From positions 124,001 to 188,000 of the forward strand of contig NIVC01001134.1 in the NCBI GenBank assembly GCA_002269645.1: a stretch of DNA of 64,000 bases, read 5' to 3'. A program made the translations under genes and the position numbers. The stretch is from Macrostomum lignano. Its lineage: Eukaryota. How positions within the stretch are numbered: the first letter of the stretch is position 1; each line of letters begins with the position of its first letter. This document shows, in pieces, positions 1,379 through 12,400 of the stretch. The notes below the pieces were generated by a model, which did not search any database, was not told the DNA's origin, and saw nothing but the letters and a program-made list of their open reading frames with translations.

Positions 1379-2347
1379 CCGCTCGAGTCCGGCCGGGCCG
1401 TTCCGGAACGGCGCCGTCACCGCTGCTGCCGTCGCCGCCGACGCCGAAAGTCTCCCGGGTGAGGCTGGACAGCGCACCGCGCCAGGCACTACAGGACTCG
1501 GACTTATCCTTAGCCAGCAGCCGAGAAAACTGCTCAAGGTGCTCAGGTTTCGCCAGACCGTTGAGCTGCTCGCTGGGCTTGGCAGCGGCCGCGCGCAGCA
1601 CTTCCGGCCGGGCTGTCGGGTAGCAGCTGAGCGGATTTCCAGCAAGTTTAATTGAAGATCAGCTAAACTCTCAATGTACTGCTTTTACTACTGGTAATTA
1701 GTGTCTGTCAGTAGTGCGCAAAAAATTAAAAAGTAAAATTCTTTAAATTTAATTTCAATTTTGGTTTTTAACGAATATTTAGTAATGATACTGGACAGCG
1801 AATTGAACTCATCTGGTGAGCAGGAATTCAGAGTCGCACCCACGAACAGGTACTCAGCACCCACGAACAGGTACTCAGCACCCACGAACAGGTAATCAGC
1901 ACCCACGAACAGGTACTCAGCACCCACGAACAGGTACTCAGCACCCACGAACAGGTACTCAGCACCCACGAACAGGTAATCAGCACCCACGAACAGGTAA
2001 TCAGCACCCACGAACAGGTACTCAGCACCCACGAACAGGTAATCAGCACCCAAGGAACTCAGCACCAAAGGTACTCAGCACCAAAGGAACTCAGCACCAA
2101 GGGAACTCAGCACCAAGGGAACTCAGCACCAAAGGAACTCAGCACCAAGGGAACTCAGCACCAAAGGAACTCACACGTGCAGATGCAGCGGCATTTGATC
2201 ATCGACCACGCTGGGCACCTGGCAGCCGTGCAGGGAGCTGATGTGGACGCACCTGTGTGGGTGCGGGTTATGCCGGGTGTTGATGGCGGGTAATTCGAAA
2301 CGACCGTCAGCGGACCCGCCCGAACCTGATCGAGTTGACTGGGCCAT
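1379..2347 (-). CDS. TBATA: TBATA/SPATIAL-like protein, 5' part (exon 1 2347-2175, exon 2 1626-~1379; 3' end uncertain)
   Basis: ATG at 2347 with an in-frame upstream stop; GTGAGT donor at 2174 (phase 2) joins in frame to a CAG acceptor at 1627. Product MAQSTRSGSGGSADGRFELPAINTRHNPHPHRCVHISSLHGCQVPSVVDDQMPLHLHVCYPTARPEVL...SESCSAWRGALSSL. RHNPHPxRxxHI..LxG..V..VxDD and SxAWRxxL resemble recalled SPATIAL-family motifs (RHHPHPQHVTHIQDLTGKPVCVVRDE; SEAWKKEL). Confidence 0.6.
1838..2172. repeat. 21-bp minisatellite (CACCCACGAACAGGTACTCAG) grading into CACCAAGGGAACTCAG variants, in the TBATA-like intron
   Basis: Direct reading. Confidence 0.9.
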
Positions 2348-3617
2348 TCTGGGCAGGTGCGCTGGTTGAAGCTTTTAGGTCTGCGCATGGCTGCTGCGCT
2401 CGCGCTCACATTTATGAAGCAGAGGAGTGAGACATTTGCAAAAATACGAACACAGAGAGACAGAGGGGCATGGAAGCTGGAAAACAAGAGTCGCGGAGTT
2501 CAGAGCATAGATGCCTGGGTGTCTGCAATCTGGTTTGTTTCCAATCCAGATGCCAAAGTCCACCTGGGTCTCCATGCCTCTGTCTGACGCACCTGTTATC
2601 TGCAGCCGTCCCTCTTTTATTTTTTAAACTTCGCGCATAGATGGCCACTGTAGACGCCAAGCAGTTTGCAGTATAATGCCTTCCATTTAGTAAAGTCTTC
2701 AATGTGTCTGGATGCTTTTTCTGATTCTCTTTTGCTTGCGAACTAAACAATTAAGTGGCTCTGATTCTCGTTAACACTCATGAGGCCCTTTTATCACCAT
2801 AAGCACTAGCGCATTTGGTGCCTACTAAAGCTAACGCAATTGTGGAGGTCATAAAATTCTATTTTAAAGTGTATTTTAATAATCATTGATAGTCTTTGAA
2901 CAGTTATTGGGCCCGTTAAAGTAATTATAGTCTCGGACTAATTTTCACCAGTCTCTCCTCCCGATACATAGAGGTTCTCTCTCTCAAGCTGCAGCCCCGC
3001 TCTTGACGAACAATTTGTCAGTTTCAACATCCGGGAATTTTTTGTTCCATTGATTCAATCAGCTCAAGTTTGACATGGCTTGAAATGCGTGGCCTGTGAT
3101 GCTCGCCCTCCTGCCCTTGCTTGGTGGGCCTTGTGCTTCAGCAACCGCGCCATCGGCGCATCCTGCAGTGTCTTGAGTTTTCGGCCGTTAATTACTCATT
3201 GCCCGAATTTCTGACACTTTCAGGTGAATTTGAATTTTCTGAGTTCAACTGGTTCATTGCCGCTCCCTTTTGAGTGCAATGGTTGAGGCTAAGTGGTCCT
3301 AAGTGGCTAAGGTACATCCATCATCGATTCGTTCCCTGCCTTCTTCATCTCTTAATTTAACTGTAAGAGAAAATTTGCTAGGTAAAATGTATGCTCACTC
3401 GTACGAGCTAGTTTCATCATAGGAAAGATATGAGCCAATGTAATATAGAACAACATTTGCCTGGGAGTACTAGCTCAATATATATTTATAAATAGCTTGC
3501 ATTATGGTTGTGCACGCGGCCTGGACCCGTGAATAACTCTGCGCGTCCCCTGTAATCCCTTTGCCATCCGAGTTGGACAAAACCCACGCAAGTAGAATGA
3601 GGCAGGCTAGCATTTGA

Positions 3618-3912
3618 AATGCAAAATTATTCAATTACATAACTAAGTGGAGCGGGGGGTATCAGAATTTGTTGGGGTATCAGAATTAATATCATAATAC
3701 AACTTAATCAAACCACCACAAATTAAACTTCAGTTCTAGTATCTAAGTAATCTATATATCAAGTCTTGCTAATTTTATCATGGGATAAAAATCTAACAGG
3801 GATACAAAAGTAGAACTTCTGCCCCTATAGATTAGGAATTGGTAGCTACATGTAGCTTTAAAAGGCCATAATTACCGCTCCACTTAGTTAAGTAATTTAA
3901 CAATTTTGCATT
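3618..3912. mobile_element. MITE-like element with 38 bp inverted repeats
   Basis: AATGCAAAATTATTCAATTACATAACTAAGTGGAGCGG (3618-55) matches the reverse complement of 3875-3912 with 3 mismatches. Confidence 0.55.
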
Positions 3913-5032
3913 AAAAATTTAAGAGAAAGCCGAACTGCTCTTTTTGAATTGATTCAGTTAATCTTGGCACCTCATTAACCCACCCCATTCACAAAATCGA
4001 ATTTTAAGTTCGCCCAGACAACAGAGAGTATTAATTAACACTACCTTTCTTTAAGATATCACCACCTGTGACTGGGATCCAATACAATTGACCTGAGGTA
4101 TACTTCAAAGTGAGTAATTACATCTGAAAAGTGAAAAAGTTGAGTCTGCTAGTTGTGTATTGTGCTAATCACTGAGTCAAATAATTTTTCTTTAGTTGAG
4201 CAAGGTCTGAGCTCGATCAATGAGTCGTAATGTAATCCGAAAATTTGAATTATTTATCGCGCCGATTCACTACAACAAATTCAAAACCTCCCGAGCTGAA
4301 AAAGAACTGAAAAAGCATAAAAATTTCATTAAAACTTTCTTTTTGTGCCCAAAATTAAAGAGTATGTAAAATATATACATTTAAAAATCTCTCTTGTAAA
4401 AAGAACTCCTGAACCTACGATTTCGAAACACAATTTTTTTTTTCGACGAAATGATGATTAGACATTAGACAAGCAGCAGCTTATTTTGCAGCAGCAGAAC
4501 CACTGGCAATTTTTAACATTTCTAGCTTCTAATTTTACTATCTCTAAATGAACTGTTATAAATAGACATATCTCTACATAAACATAAAGAATACACTCAA
4601 TAAGACTTTAGTTCACACAGAATCACATGAAAAATATAATTGAATTGAATTGAATTATTTGAATAATAGGCCTATAGTATACTATAGTATAGACCTATTT
4701 TTTGTTTCGCCAGTTGTTTCATTTACAGATACTTTAGTAACATTGGTTTAAGTCTATTTTTAAGTTACAATATTTAGTTACTAGGCCTAGGATCTAAAGT
4801 TTAGTAGGGTCTATGAAAAGCAAATAGTAATATTAAATAAGTAATTTTGTTAAATTATATAATGTATTATATACAAATTTTATTAAGTATTTTATATTAA
4901 ATAAAAACATATATTATATATATTATATTATGTAATATACTACATTGTATACTATAGGTCTATTTGTGGCAATCTTACATTTTTGTTCAATAATTTTGCT
5001 TCAAATTTGTGCTTAGCAAACAATTATAAGAA

Positions 5033-6366
5033 CTTGGCAATTTTCCTCTTTCGTTCATTAAATTAATTTTTCATTTGAACATGAACAGTACTAACTTTAA
5101 ATGATAAAAAACAATAACAGTATGTTGTAAAAACCTTCGTAGTATTTAGAAAAGCATGAAATTGAAATTACACCAAGGCATATAAGAAAGTGAAGCAACA
5201 ATTGTCTTTTAGCAACTGTCTATAGTTAAAACTGTGGGGATATCACTAGAAAACTAAAAGGGGTATGAAGAAAATAATTTGTCCTAATAATCCTACTTAG
5301 GGAGGCTGTAGGCCTAGCCTAGCGGTAGCACAGCTACTCTAGTGTGCTAGCAACCTAGGCTTGATTCCAAGTGCAGTCACATTAATTTGTGGCTGAATTG
5401 GAATCTTGGCTTGGCTCTGATTGTACAATTTATGGCCTTAAAAGCCAACTCCCCAAGGTGTAGTAAAGTGTATATGCCTAATGATAATATAAAGTTAGGG
5501 CCATTGTATACTTCTATATGAGTGTGTGCCTGTATATGTATCCGTGTGCTTGTATGCCTGCTTAGGGGAGTCAGCGGAATGGGCAGTAATGCCTCTTGCC
5601 AGTTCTATGCCTATGTCACTTAAAGTTTGCCAGGGTGCACACAACCCCCTGCCTTTAATATAAAAATCCTATTTCTTTCACCAAAAGTACCACTAAGGTA
5701 CTGGCTTAGACAATGGGTACTAGGCATGTTTGAACAATGATGAACATGGTGCCAAGAAGTGTGTGATGATTGCTGTTCCTAACTGCACTGCTGCAATGCT
5801 GCTACCTTTAATTCAATGCCACATTCTCCCTGGTACACATATGTTTATTAATAGATAGCAAGCATATACCCAGCTCCAGAATCATGCTGCTGTCAACTAC
5901 CAGCTCTCATTCATCAATCCTCAAGACCCAACTATGCATACAAACCTCATCAAGGGGACATGGGTACACTATAAGGCAAAATTCCAAGCTATGCATGGTC
6001 CTCTTTAAGTCATCTTGAGGAATTCATGTGAGGCGGAAAATATACCTATAAACATCTTTGGCAACATACTCTTTAGGATTGCCCACTATTACCCCTATAA
6101 ACCAAACTTCAAACTTTTGACTTTTGAACTTCATTATGTTTTCTAGTGATATCTAGTATCCTTGCAGTTTTAACCATAGACAGTTGCTAAAAGACTATTG
6201 TTGCTTTACTTTCTAACATGCATTGGCACAATTTCAATTTCATGCTTTTCTAAATGCTATGAAGGTTTCCATAACATACTGTTATCATTTTTTGTTGTTT
6301 AAAGTTAGTACTGTTTATGTTTAAACAAAAAATTAATTTAATGAACAAAAGAGGAAAATTGCCAAG
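5033..6366. repeat. Diverged ~225 bp inverted repeat pair (5033-5254 / 6138-6366), probably a decayed TIR element
   Basis: Manual alignment shows the arms are collinear reverse complements with substitutions and one small indel. Confidence 0.85.
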
Positions 6367-9300
6367 AACTCCTATATAGTGAAACAAATATTTACAAGTA
6401 TATATCTTTCTTCATTTAAAAGGATAGAATTGACATTAGACATGGCTTAATTAGACTATTGACTATTGTGGCATAGTCTAATGTTTAAGCCTTACAGTTT
6501 ATTTCATGCTTAGAGTTAAGCCTAGCCTATACTACAGGAAAACTGATTGTTTGAGCCTAGAAATAGTATGGTTGATGGGGCTTTGATATGACATTAGGCG
6601 CCTAGTAGGCTCATCAAATGAAAGTTATGTTTATGTATAGTATAGTATAAGGGATGCTCTATTATAAATTCAATAGGAATGCCTATATTGAAAGCCTAAA
6701 GATTTTAGTTCCAGAGGGATTTTGAAAGTGGTTACTTTAGTATTTTAATTCTATTTGATAAATTTCATTTGCCTACTAAATAAAGTAAAAATACAATTAT
6801 TTTTGAAAATAATTTTAATAATAAGAAATAAAAATATAATTAATATTTTTATATCTTTAGTTTTAATTTTTTTTGCAATATATTTTGCTTATCCTATGTA
6901 ATTTAAGTTTTTTGTCTTTTGTTTATAGATGAAAAAATCTATTGGAGAACTACCTTATGCCTAATTGCTACCACACCCCAGATCATATTGTATATGCCCA
7001 AAATTTGAGTGTGCATTGGCCTTGTGCGCCAAAAGTTGGCATGCACAATTAGCATGCAAAATTCCTAAGAAAAAAGTATGTGTGCACACCTGGCATACAC
7101 TTATAGAATTATGCAGAAGAGTTAGTGGTAAGCTCATTAATAATATAATAAAACAAAATTTTGTGCATATTAATTATCTGCTATAAATAATAAAGACAAG
7201 AAAGGTAAATAATCAACCTAATTATCAGTTTAAAAAGGTTCTTTATGCAATACAAAATGTTCATCAAGGCCTTAGTGCTGTAGGCACTAGTTAGCAAGGC
7301 TGAATAGGCAAACAAAGCAGGTTCAAGAGAGAGTTATCTCTTTAAGATATTTTTTGCATTTATAAATAATCATTAAACATGGTAGACTATTTTGAAAAAA
7401 ACTTTTAGGTGAGAAAATATAAAATATGAATAATATTGCAATATAGGTTATTCAGATATATTCAAGTAGCTCTTTTATTAGAAAAAGGTAGAGATATTTT
7501 CATGAGTAAAAACGTATAATTTGTGTCTCTATTTCACAAAACAAGCATATACTACTAGAAAAAGGCATTTTTTCTAGTAGTATTTTTTCTAGTAGTACTG
7601 CATTTTTTAAATGAGTATTTTTCTAGGTTTTAGTCAGTATCTCCATTGGCAACTGATCTGAGTAGGGCCAGCCACACTCGTTGCCAAGCCACTAGACCAC
7701 AGTGTAGACATTGGCTCAGTTGACCCAGCTATGTTTAAATCAAACAGTGCATTTGCAACAATGCACTTCTAGACTGCAACAGCATGGGTGGTCAGCATCC
7801 ACTGTAATGTCTAGATAGTGGAGCAAAGGTCCTCTCATATAGGAAATGGCCTTGAACCATCCATGCGCTATCGCCCTACTTGCACCAAATAGAGTTGGAT
7901 CTCTGTGACTAGTTAGCGATGCTTGATGTGACAATGCTCTAGCATTATTGCAGTGGCTATCTTGCTATATCTTGCTATAATTGCCACTGATTTTGTGGAG
8001 TGGTTCTAGCTTGGACACATCTCACATTAATGGCAGGATCTCAGTTGGGGTTTCTTGTTTTGCTAGCAACCTGGTCGTAGCCTGATGCTGGGGTTGCCTT
8101 TTGTAGGTTGATGGTGGCATTACCAGAGGGGGTGACAATGGCTATTTAATAGGCAACCTTAGTTGTCATCTTGGGTCGTGGGATGATAAGGCTGTATATA
8201 TTGCTTGCTGTGATCCAAGATGGTGCATTCTTCTTGGGCATCTCACTGTGCAGCAGAACAATAGTCAATTTGCTATCTTTGGGCTGTCATGGTGCTATCG
8301 CAGGGGAAACATTAATTGGGACATCAGCCTACTATTTCAATAGCTTGGCCCAATCTTGGGGTGTTGTGGAAAGGGAGCAATCTGGGTGCACAACCACTAA
8401 GGATGGCTGCTCCTGGAGGATTGGGGCTAGTTCTCTGGCATTCCGGGGCTAGCAGTTCATTTTCAGTATCACTGTCTAACTCTCCTTTGTCACTGGCACT
8501 TAAATAGACTCAGCTCATCTTGTAGATGCTTCAGTTTGTCAGCTTTGGCAGTCATTGGAAGTAATTGGATTGGGGAGTAAAAGAATTTGGGATAGATAGC
8601 AATGGAGAGCAAAATTTGATTGTTGTGTAATCTTAGTTTGAAGTGTTTGACTTTAAACTTTATAATTTAGCATTTGATTGCACTTTATCAGCCTGATTAA
8701 TACCATCAATTGCAACATTATTTAGCCTGCTTTCTTTAACAAAGTTATCTACCTAGGACAGAAAGCTATGTTTTGTCCTGCTTCTTATTGACCTTGTTGA
8801 TGACATTTTGCCTAAAAATAGAAATCTAAATAAATCCTATAAAACGTTTTTTTCTGTAAGATGTTATGCCCTAATAGCAAAATGGATAATATAAAGCTTA
8901 TGAAAGTACCTATTTAAACAAAATCCAAGCCTATCATCATACTTAACAAGCAGAAAAGTGAAGTGGTAAAAAAGCTACTAGAAAATAGAATTTCATAAGT
9001 ATATATAATATATTATTAAGAGTTTAAAAGCAATTTATCTTATGTTAAACATCCAAATAAAATCATGATAATGGGCCAAGCATAAGATAAAAAACGAATA
9101 GTTCAAAATTACCAAAAAAATTGAAACTTTATTTGTCTGGTCCACTAAAGCCAGTCTGCCCTATTGAGTCATTATATATAAGACTAAATAGTAAAAGTAA
9201 AAAATGTATTTTGATTCTATGTATTTGATCATGATGTATAATCAAACTATATGCTTTGTGAATTTTAGTTGGTAAACGTTTGAAAATTTCTGTTTAATGT

Positions 9301-9451
9301 TTGAAATAAGCATATCAGTTGCTGAGAGTAAATTAAAAATATTCTACTTTAGATGCTACGAGTACTAAAAGTAGAAATACATAAGCTGCCATACAAATGG
9401 GTACAGAGAAGGTCATATGGCTGTTATACGAGCTATTGATTAATTTTGTGC

Positions 9452-12400
9452 ATGCCTCCTACACGCAGCAGCGTACAGCACTTTGGCTCCATCAATTGCG
9501 CTAGCAAGCTGTACAGACCTGGTGGCCATCTTCGGCCTGCTCTCCCTCTCAGCTAGGCCAGCAGACTGTCAAAGCGGCAATCATTGCGTCAAACAATTCA
9601 CAGAGCCGGCTGGCTTTTGACAAGTTCAACCGGGGCACCGACGACGTCTGGGATGCCAATGATGAGGAGTTTCTCAGCCAGGTACAGCACTCGGCTTCAT
9701 TGGCTAGCGCCACCGCTAATCAGGTAATTAGCAGTGATGCAATATATATGATCAACCCATTGAAAACGTTACCATGACGAGAATTGCTAAAGAGTCCTTG
9801 TAAACAACTCACGACTCAAACTATTGTAATGCGATGGAGAGGCGATTGTTGAGTCACGAGTGCATCACGTGAGTTGTAGAATAAATTCTATATTCTCATT
9901 AAACCCAAGTAGGCTAAATAGAGTTGTTATAAATGCGCTTTAGAATCAACTCAGTGATTTTACAGCGACTCCGGCACGCCTCAGATACGACTCAACGGAC
10001 CCAGAGTCAGTATAAAAGCGCCCCAGAGTCGCAGACAATTAAACGCCAAAAATTGAATCTTAGGCGACTCTCTTTGGCGACTTTTACTTTTTCCTTTTAC
10101 CTGTTTTAACATGCAACGACTCTGAAAGGTTTCTATGACGACGCAAATGATTCTGGGACGCTTCTTGACCTGGATACCAATTTCAGGCCACGTTAATTTT
10201 AGGGCTCCCGTGTTGTTGAATCCTCCATAAGAGGTTGCTGGGCAATTAGTTCTCGGAACGGGTCAGCGCCAGTTGAGGATGCCGCTTGCTATATTTATAG
10301 CCGCGCACCCGCAGGTGATTGAGAATCATCGCCGATCGGTTGGCAGCAGCAGCAGCAAGGCGACTCCTTCAGTCGCATCTTCTGCTCAATCTGCCAAAGA
10401 ACTGCAGCAGCAGCAGCAGCAGCAGCAACCACAACAGCAACGGCAGCAGCCAAACCGAGCAAAACCGAAGCTTCCAGCGCCCGGTCTAGGCGTCCGTCAG
10501 AGTGGCTATTCGACAGCTCAGATTCACAGCATCTATTGCGCCCACCGTAGACTATCAGAGGACGCTGGCGGCGGCGGCAGTAACGCTAGCGGCGGCAAGT
10601 CGGCCGACACAGTTGAGAAGGAGTCGAAATTCGCCTCCCTGATAGGCGCTGCCGCCACTAATATGGACGAGCTGCGCCGGCTGGCCTGGTCGGGCGTCAC
10701 TCATACTGTGCGCCCGATTGTGTGGAAACTGCTCATTAAATATGCACCGGTGAATTCCTCTAGGCGGGCCGCGGTGCTTCAAGAGAAACGACGAATGTAC
10801 GCTGGCATGGTTGACGAATACTATGGCAAGAGAACTCAGCCGGCTAACGACGGCATGTACAAGCAGATATTGAAGGATTTGGTGCGCATGACTGTGCTGG
10901 CTGAGCATACTCAGTTTCATCAGGTAATAGTTTATGGCACCTACCATGTCGATGCGTGTCTTAAATGGTTTCCTTAAACTTAGTTATAAAGAGATTGGAT
11001 TGCAAAATTTGAGAATGAGTATGATTTAGGCATGCTCAATTTAAACTGAGTATTAGTTTAGTTTTGGCACTTTCAAAATCAGGCATGGAATGTAGACAAA
11101 TGACAAGTAGTTATTGTACAGTATAGTCTATGGTCCGCGGCATGACTGTACTTTAGTGGTGTGGAATTATTGACAGTATAGTCTATGGTCCGCGGCATGA
11201 CTGTACTTTAGTGGTGTGGAATTATTGACAGTATAGTCTATGGTCCGCGGCATCACTGTACTTTAGTGGTGTAGAATTATTGTACAGTATAGTCTATGGT
11301 CTGCGGCATCACTGTACTTTAGTGGTGTAGAATTATTGTACAGTATAGTCTATGGTCTGCGCGAATTCGCATGACTGTACTTTAGTGGTGTGGTATTATT
11401 GTACAGTATAGTCTATGGTCCGCGGAATCACTGTACTTTAGAGGTGTAGAATTATTGTACAGTATAGTCTATGGTCCGCGGCATGACTGTACTTTAGTGG
11501 TGTAGAATTATTGTACAGTATAGTCTATTGTCCGCGGAATCACTGTACTTTAGTGGTGTAGAATTATTGTACAGTATAGTCTATGGTCCGCGGAATCACT
11601 GTACTTTAGTGGTGTAGAATTATTGTACAGTATAGTCTATGGTCTGCGCGAATTCGCATGACTGTACTTTAGTGGTGTGGTATTATTGTACAGTATAGTC
11701 TATGGTCCGCGGAATCACTGTACTTTAGAGGTGTAGAATTATTGTACAGTATAGTCTATGGTCCGCGGCATGACTGTACTTTAGTGGTGTAGAATTATTG
11801 TACAGTATAGTCTATGGTCCGCGGAATCACTGTACTTTAGTGGTGTAGAATTATTGTACAGTATAGTCTATGGTCCGCGGCATGACTGTACTTTAGTGGT
11901 GTAGAATTATTGTACAGTATAGTCTATGGTCTGCGGCATGACTGTACTTTAGTGGTGTAGAATTATTGTACAGTTTTGACCCACTGGATCGTTGCGAGAG
12001 GGGTCACTGATGATTGGGGTGGGCTATTAGTATCGGTAAAACGTAAAAGTAATTATATATATATATTTGAAAATTTAACAAACGTGCAGTAGCTCAGACT
12101 AGTAGAAATTTTCCATTGAATTTAGCTATTTCTCACCTCATTTTAATTTACCGTTTGCCAGGTGTTCGCCCGAATACTATTCATCTGGAGCATGCGCCGA
12201 CCGGCGAGCACCTACGTGCAGGGCATGAACGACCTTGTAACGCCATATTTCATAGTTTACCTATCCGAATATTGCACTGTAGACGTTGATTCGAGCGATC
12301 GTTTGAGATTGCGCGGCGAGCCGCCGAACGATAGTGAATTAGCCAGCATCGAGGCAGACTGCTATTGGTCCCTGTCGGCACTGCTGGACACCATACAGGA

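Follow-up and report, generated by a model that had tools for sequence, protein, structure and literature searches.

Position-dependent CpG decay in Macrostomum lignano, with a 4.9-kb depleted block as the likely first intron or outron of TBC1D22

In a stretch of 64,000 nucleotides of the Macrostomum lignano genome (contig NIVC01001134.1; G000:C1134:124001-188000; hereafter the window), a 4.9-kb block next to the Rab-GAP gene TBC1D22 has lost about 85% of its CG pairs. The block is one instance of a genome-wide pattern in which location, not repeat family, decides CpG decay. Its CpG poverty is due to decay, and a native composition is excluded. The C-to-T excess is recent, ongoing and equal on both strands. 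We consider it probable (roughly 70%) that the CG pairs were lost by C-to-T change from germline 5-methylcytosine (5mC) which, in housekeeping genes, is limited to the region from the promoter to the first internal exon, and that the block likely represents the first intron or outron of TBC1D22. The 5mC itself is read from the mutations it would have left.

4460-9350, + strand: CpG-depleted domain, a patchwork of decayed repeats with 21 CG and a CpG observed/expected ratio (o/e) of 0.155; likely first intron or outron of TBC1D22.

A sequence-only reading had tallied about 20 CG in this block and 45-50 in the similarly AT-rich stretch 15400-17000, and the counts bear it out. From the base composition of the block, 135.4 CG are expected (Poisson P 2e-34), at a G+C content of 0.33 and with 219 GC dinucleotides present, and the control stretch has 46 CG (G+C 0.345, o/e 0.97). 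The flanks, which had been called CG-rich, have o/e values of 0.75 (2760-3560), 1.78 (4200-4460) and 0.96 (9450-11000), and a miniature inverted-repeat transposable element at 41988-42535 has 0.76. Judged by CG positions, the depletion begins after 4447 and ends before 9359-9429. With tandem repeats masked, no second depleted domain is left in the window or in the 20 kb before it; the remaining CG-free 500-bp bins of the window sit in minisatellites. The abundance of TAG and CTA words was likewise real, with a trinucleotide o/e of 1.32 in the block vs 0.82 in G+C-matched control sequence, and CAG/CTG is lowered (1.22 vs 1.33). TAG and CTA words are frequent because C-to-T change is also raised at CpA. 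The comparison with G+C-matched DNA proposed in that reading places the block far below the controls, but the block is not unique. Away from the short interspersed element (SINE) copies used as anchors, 49 of 1068 unmasked 500-bp bins (about 5%) are equally depleted (o/e <0.3). A contiguous 100 kb of contig C1 gave 2 of 310 bins below 0.3 and no domain; domains are therefore patchy in the genome.

The same depleted block lies between the same flanks at two homologous loci, G000:C2891 and G000:C61. Both are depleted across the sequence shared with the window and are broken by CpG-richer insertions of their own. A chimera or contaminant, which the sequence-only reading had named as one possible refutation, is ruled out by these two loci and by several sequencing runs. 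Of 24 listed runs, 10 (one possibly the source of the assembly) contain half or more of the words sampled from 2200-11100; none of the runs listed for this stretch is an RNA run. The window and C61 differ at 246 of 3813 positions in the block (6.5%) and at 49/2912 (1.7%) and 120/7644 (1.6%) outside. The excess of divergence is confined to the block, and the extra mutation is therefore recent.

The block contains the following decayed segments, one of which serves as a reporter of decay.

5036-6363, + strand: decayed DNA transposon of the Merlin/IS1595 type, bounded by 210-nt terminal inverted repeats; its 8-bp target duplication has one mismatch.
5311-5667, + strand: SINE copy of 357 nt, nested in the Merlin remnant; natural decay reporter.
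6970-7260, no strand assigned: fragment of a third dispersed repeat, with 78-86% matches across many contigs.
7640-8565, no strand assigned: decayed GC-richer segment, 63-73% identical to L138/L141, with distant relatives within another depleted domain.

The SINE excludes an element that is natively CpG-poor. Young copies, the kind of unmutated source that the sequence-only reading had suggested looking for, retain all 22 CpG, and the copy in the window keeps 3. We scored the latter against the commonest letter of nine young copies. C-to-T changes were found at 19 of 44 CpG cytosines, 15 of 55 at CpA, 3 of 55 at CpC and 3 of 47 at CpT, with T-to-C at 0 of 149.

Depleted domains are linked to the 5' sides of genes. 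The Pfam scan covered 150 of 207 candidate open reading frames (ORFs) from 35 domain-bearing loci. Pfam named a cellular gene at 14 independent loci. In 13 of them, the domain is found 5' of the exon so named (twice at a distance of 9-10 kb); at the exception, L102, it lies on the 3' side. A test set fixed before looking took in every proteasome-alpha or chaperonin gene detected (17 loci, of which one was removed as the same gene), with 12 homeobox loci (20 planned) as control, and 7-kb segments were scored. A domain was present in 8 of 16 proteasome-alpha/chaperonin segments vs none of 12 homeobox segments (P 0.008), and the depleted bins numbered 76/325 vs 1/218. The background was 14 of 80 segments at SINE loci and 0 of 14 C1 tiles. 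By the proxy of CpG loss, housekeeping genes are marked and developmental genes are not, as gene-body methylation would have it.

Exon 1 could be placed in four genes, in which the domain equals intron 1 and ends at exon 2. Intron 1 of CCT5 has 3.2 kb, 2 CG and an o/e of 0.03, that of CCT3 2.2 kb and 0.11, and that of a proteasome-alpha gene 2.4 kb and 0.25. In twinfilin, exon 1 is on the far side of the domain and intron 1 measures 5 kb. Promoters are spared and the depletion falls within the transcribed region: o/e is 1.1 in the 600 bp upstream of exon 1 vs 0.03-0.25 in intron 1 of the first three genes, and twinfilin is alike. Behind exon 2, the low-GC bins of five genes contain 66 CG vs 68 expected (0.97). 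Later exons and introns are normal, so that the depletion is neither exon-enriched nor spread over the whole gene body.

Repeats inserted inside and outside domains allow location and repeat identity to be separated. The SINE family has 2152 exact matches of its 26-nt core in the genome, and sister copies show a poly(A) end and target duplications. A tRNA origin was judged by eye; ARAGORN called none in copy L030. Eighty ten-kb loci, drawn from the first 100 places listed, held 93 copies, 88 of which have at least 500 unmasked flank bases. In the nine copies with flank o/e <0.3, changes were found at 77 of 383 CpG cytosines (20%), 23/488 CpA, 6/456 CpC and 13/404 CpT, with T-to-C at 9/1282. 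The 76 copies with flank o/e of at least 0.6 gave 104/2955 (3.5%), 36/3763, 48/3496 and 47/3121 for the four contexts, and three copies had intermediate flanks. The transversion rate is the same in both flank classes (P 0.37), and the CpC rate likewise does not differ. When the whole set of 88 is ranked, CpG loss correlates weakly with flank o/e (rho -0.18, P 0.09); the effect of the flank is concentrated in a few depleted loci. Copy L100 is decayed at a flank o/e of 0.71, with one depleted patch close by on each side.

Merlin elements behave in the same way. Young Merlins have an o/e of 0.8-1.0 inside flanks of 0.0-0.4, and the domains therefore predate the insertions. Merlin L211, in normal flanks, has 0 of 142 CpG changed, and its sisters with a depleted flank 12-22 of 181. 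Unique coding exons lying in domains also look depleted. Of the region- or repeat-targeted methylation suggested by the sequence-only reading, the region part stands. Repeat targeting is not supported as the main rule, as the 2152-copy SINE is nearly intact outside domains.

We regard it as unlikely that methylation is aimed at transposons (e.g., Merlin-type elements with a preference for inserting at the 5' ends of active genes) and extends from there across a repeat nest, the link to intron 1 then reflecting insertion site preference. Cnidarians (PMC8857917) and a chaetognath (PMC12460157) do target transposons. The block is indeed a patchwork of repeat remnants, the 28 relatives of the window Merlin are mostly depleted (o/e 0.00-0.56), and Merlins are enriched in domains: of the 18 independent Merlin loci that have a sister copy, 11 show a depleted flank, vs 11 of 91 SINE copies (P 3e-5). 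A mark that follows the element should, however, appear wherever the element lands and drop sharply at its edge. Instead, SINE loss depends on the flank, L211 is untouched, and the flanks are more depleted than the young elements within them. Moreover, retroelement ORFs adjoining domains are CpG-rich, only 29% of domain sequence matches another domain, and the domain edges fall at exon 1 and exon 2.

The remnants in the block are of several kinds. The Merlin arms (5033-5242 and 6157-6366) are 87% complementary, with 24 transitions vs 3 transversions between them and five TG/CA pairs, and a Pfam DDE_Tnp_IS1595 match at 5739-6000 (E 2e-5) lies under the curated cut-off. Pfam matches were absent from 7640-8565, six frames being read with X at stops, and from the six frames of 6400-9400. 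The block as a single decayed gene or element was rejected on this six-frame blank; the relative L138 gave Integrase_p58_C at a non-significant E of 0.04. Other pieces of the block match further repeats or other depleted domains. In the C2891 copy (L033), at the site equivalent to window position 8520, a 1655-nt element is inserted, with TA flanks and perfect terminal inverted repeats that begin with CAGT, which we take to be Tc1/mariner-like; it is still at o/e 0.72. Left of the domain, a small inverted-repeat element occupies 3612-3918 (44-nt arms, 89%). Elsewhere, L080:1375-3375 is a depleted domain with a long inverted repeat and 35 CTAG in 2 kb, the top TAG/CTA enrichment seen.

The mutation spectrum follows the base 3' of the cytosine. 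When the three homologous copies are compared, changes in the block vs the non-coding flanks amount to 8/16 vs 8/226 at CpG, 49/355 vs 10/472 at CpA, 20/167 vs 4/274 at CpC and 26/321 vs 15/446 at CpT. In 15 young Merlin copies of three families, the rates are 137/1735 (7.9%) at CpG, 51/3144 (1.6%) at CpA, 26/2317 (1.1%) at CpT and 16/2175 (0.7%) at CpC, with T-to-C at 26/10738 (0.24%). In this set, the 3' base governs the C-to-T rate (CG >> CA > CT > CC), and a 5' preference is not strong. An excess of CpA over CpC plus CpT is clear in three sets, the Merlin copies and the two groups of SINEs (P 2e-5 when pooled); CpA is raised 5- to 7-fold, and CpG is still 4- to 5-fold above CpA. Symmetric CWG methylation is ruled out: the window SINE has 8 of 18 CAG changed but only the above 3 of 47 at all CpT, and other depleted copies have CAG 11/157 vs CTG 6/156. 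The context is therefore CA, not CWG. Strand bias is absent in 19 gene-oriented domains (TAG 1168 vs CTA 1174), which rules out transcription-coupled single-strand deamination. DNMT3 prefers CG >> CA > CT > CC. A C-to-T rate that depends on the following base and does not differ between strands fits 5mC deposited by DNMT3 and maintained by DNMT1. The localized, strong cytosine mutagenesis claimed in the sequence-only reading is supported by this spectrum, which has the signature of germline 5mC deamination, and by the flank dependence. As a side observation, premature stops in the Merlin transposase matches of the genome are about 100 TAG, 45 TGA and 25 TAA (hand tally, duplicates included), as expected from CpA decay of CAG and TGG.

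The enzymes are available. Among 15 candidates scored, 12 matched PF00145 and form DNMT1-, DNMT2- and DNMT3-like triplets, i.e., three copies of each, one of each being translated. The DNMT survey asked for in the sequence-only reading hence found DNMT1 and DNMT3, as gene-body methylation would need. The DNMT3 has an ADD domain. Its PWWP domain seemed at first to be lost, since none of 59 Pfam matches on the DNMT3 contigs (three in number) was a PWWP; this was overturned by an intron-split, divergent domain overlooked by the Pfam scan, whose second half matches DNMT3B (E 8e-6). The halves lie at L272:3217-3624 and 8150-8260 (G000:C305) with a 4.5-kb intron between them, and a genome-only domain scan would wrongly score this PWWP as lost. 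In invertebrate gene-body methylation, it is the PWWP of DNMT3 that reads H3K36me3 and so guides deposition. The first half reads VWARWQRQ-SYP, which presumably lacks one aromatic residue of the methyl-lysine cage when set against DNMT3B. The first exon of DNMT3 and its upstream region are themselves CpG-poor. At L113/L124 (G000:C33), a DNMT2 gene adjoins a sampled SINE copy. Two reviews report that M. lignano retains DNMT1 and DNMT3 and has low 5mC (PMC9246332, PMC11292947).

Another improbable explanation is a promoter-proximal mutator in place of stable 5mC, either an AID/APOBEC-like deaminase or a DNMT that deaminates in the manner of fungal repeat-induced point mutation (RIP), acting in the first kilobases of active genes. 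Non-CG cytosines are changed too (CpA and CAG in the window SINE), Merlin CpG changes are about 33-fold over T-to-C, which is high for passive decay, and the zone begins just behind the promoter, as in somatic hypermutation. However, an AID/APOBEC enzyme would bring a 5' sequence preference and a single-strand substrate, and we found the rate to be set by the 3' base in DNMT3 order, with no strand bias. The sorting of the 12 PF00145 matches, among 15 candidates scored, into DNMT1-, DNMT2- and DNMT3-like triplets also speaks against a mutator. RIP resembles the present pattern in C-to-T change at CpA, stop codons, AT enrichment in transposon remnants and sharp-edged blocks. Unlike RIP, CpG is the main target here, copy number is without effect, since repeats with many copies are spared wherever they lie outside the zones, and within the zones even single-copy exons are affected. 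The genome-defence mutator offered by the sequence-only reading is therefore not supported as the main rule: repeats are spared outside domains, and the edges track gene structure.

At the locus itself, the following gene features frame the block.

9505-9723, + strand: first recognisable coding exon of TBC1D22 (Rab-GAP), an open frame with an FDKF...DVWD motif; CpG largely kept (o/e 0.64).
10313-14732, + strand: later TBC1D22 exons (10313-10923, 12159-12476, 12928-13059, 14502-14732), not depleted.
1377-2374, - strand: 5' coding exons of a SPATIAL-family gene (Pfam SPATIAL, E 7e-19), reading away from the block.
4125-4459, no strand assigned: AT-rich, CpG-keeping stretch (G+C 0.31, 11 CG, o/e 1.36), putative bidirectional promoter.

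Proteins labelled Macrostomum lignano in UniRef/NCBI match the later exons at 100% identity; for the exon at 12147-12479, the match is a Rab-GAP TBC protein. Their o/e is 0.80-1.19, that of their introns 0.72-1.11. In C61, the coding exon near window position 10713 is frameshifted relative to the other two copies (tblastn), an assembly error or a damaged copy. Exon 9505-9723, whose acceptor position is approximate, differs from its C2891 copy at five positions, all third codon positions. It has no in-frame ATG, and an upstream exon or a spliced leader is therefore needed. The spliced leader of M. lignano ends in ATG and about 30% of its genes are trans-spliced (PMC8629364), and flatworm spliced leaders end in a conserved AUG (PMC12582326). 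The block may therefore be an outron. Coding of the SPATIAL-family gene starts at about 2374, and its upstream side (2400-4124) is not strongly depleted (o/e 0.63). Given the + and - placement of the two genes, they diverge, and the block separates their 5' ends. The stretch 4125-4459 resembles the sequence that precedes exon 1 by up to 600 bp in CCT5, CCT3 and the proteasome-alpha gene. Two short, conserved pieces on the - strand (3310-3360 and 4065-4124) look like exons, have strong acceptors and lie upstream of where SPATIAL-family coding begins; they may be 5' exons or belong to a small additional gene. A start of TBC1D22 near 9350-9470, with the block as untranscribed methylated DNA between two separate promoters at this locus only, would suit the CpG kept at both ends, the missing exon 1 on the left and the location between divergent genes, but is very unlikely given that exon 9505-9723 needs an upstream exon or an ATG-ending leader (PMC8629364) and that the domain is downstream of exon 1 wherever exon 1 was placed.

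Several observations weigh against methylation confined to the promoter-to-first-internal-exon stretch. Exon 1 and the start site of TBC1D22 were not found at the locus, the three copies have no + strand GT[AG]AG donor in common within 4125-9500, and YTNCAG, the motif most often used for trans-splicing, is missing from 9200-9660. The Merlin enrichment is also expected under a transposon-led model. In the three-copy set, transversions are 1.8-fold higher in the block (94/2602 vs 73/3652 in non-coding flanks), and the excess of CpA over CpC plus CpT is not significant (P 0.07). Eight of the 16 housekeeping regions have no domain in the 7 kb tested; in three of these eight, a depleted stretch lies farther upstream, on the other side of a further gene, an arrangement expected of an operon, and the other five have none in 10 kb. 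The homeobox control was centred on the homeodomain, so some homeobox start sites may fall outside the 7 kb. Finally, the zones of IMPDH, a leucine-rich-repeat gene and a sorting nexin include small early exons, and the zone is therefore not strictly intron 1. In a separate observation on the sorting nexin (L062), the PX exon upstream of 2291 has the motif HRFSDF; PX domains usually have RRFSDF, and the change is possibly a protein-altering CpG loss.

For methylation of this stretch, we propose the following mechanism. DNMT3 would methylate CG, and CA more weakly, in transcribed chromatin immediately downstream of the promoters of active housekeeping genes. Its ADD domain would keep it off the H3K4-methylated promoter. 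Exclusion of ADD from H3K4-methylated chromatin is established DNMT3 biochemistry. DNMT1 would maintain the CG methylation, and a chromatin switch where the first splice acceptor is used would end the zone. Deamination in the germline or in neoblasts would remove CG first and then CA, and transposons landing in the zone would acquire the mark and then erode. A further step is tentative, and we think it may well be wrong: by way of a DNMT3 whose PWWP has been remodelled, gene-body methylation may have moved from the H3K36me3 zone to the interval from the promoter to the first acceptor, germline CA methylation would be a RIP-like sink that wears down DNA transposons with a preference for landing beside housekeeping promoters, and splicing would set the boundary.

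The pattern is best read as resembling housekeeping gene-body methylation without its exon-enriched or whole-body distribution, and as distinct from transposon targeting and RIP. The mosaic gene-body methylation of invertebrates also marks broadly expressed genes (arthropods, PMC7343188; annelids and molluscs, PMC11292947), spares developmental regulators and promoters, gives a bimodal CpG o/e and involves DNMT1 and DNMT3. There, methylation is exon-enriched or whole-body (PMC7343188, PMC11292947), whereas the Macrostomum scar is mainly intronic, does not extend past the first 2-5 kb, ends at exon 2 and affects non-CG cytosines as well. A human 5' intronic chromatin zone, in which H2Bub1 falls after the first internal exon, has the same promoter-to-first-internal-exon geometry (PMC4199367, citing Huff et al. 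2010). It is a histone pattern, unlike the DNA-methylation domain proposed here; the H2Bub1 drop is a candidate for the boundary signal, as a lead only. Transposons are eroded, as here, in a chaetognath (PMC12460157), Strigamia and Planococcus (PMC7343188) and cnidarians (PMC8857917), where methylation follows the element and drops at its edge, whereas the Macrostomum scar follows gene position. Chaetognaths resemble Macrostomum in combining trans-splicing with an altered DNMT3, but their DNMT3s lost ADD and PWWP, whereas that of Macrostomum retains ADD and a divergent PWWP (PMC12460157).

No paper locating methylation or CpG loss in Macrostomum was found in a coverage without most subscription papers or the species' genome paper, so that absence from print is not established. 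If the proposal is true, it would add a third arrangement beside whole-gene-body and transposon methylation, tie a methylation boundary to the first splicing event, and show non-CG decay in an invertebrate germline. For this stem-cell model animal, it gives a map from sequence alone, which predicts 5mC in housekeeping first introns and outrons, stopping at exon 2. CpG scars would also mark the start sites of trans-spliced genes, information that is lost from the mRNA.

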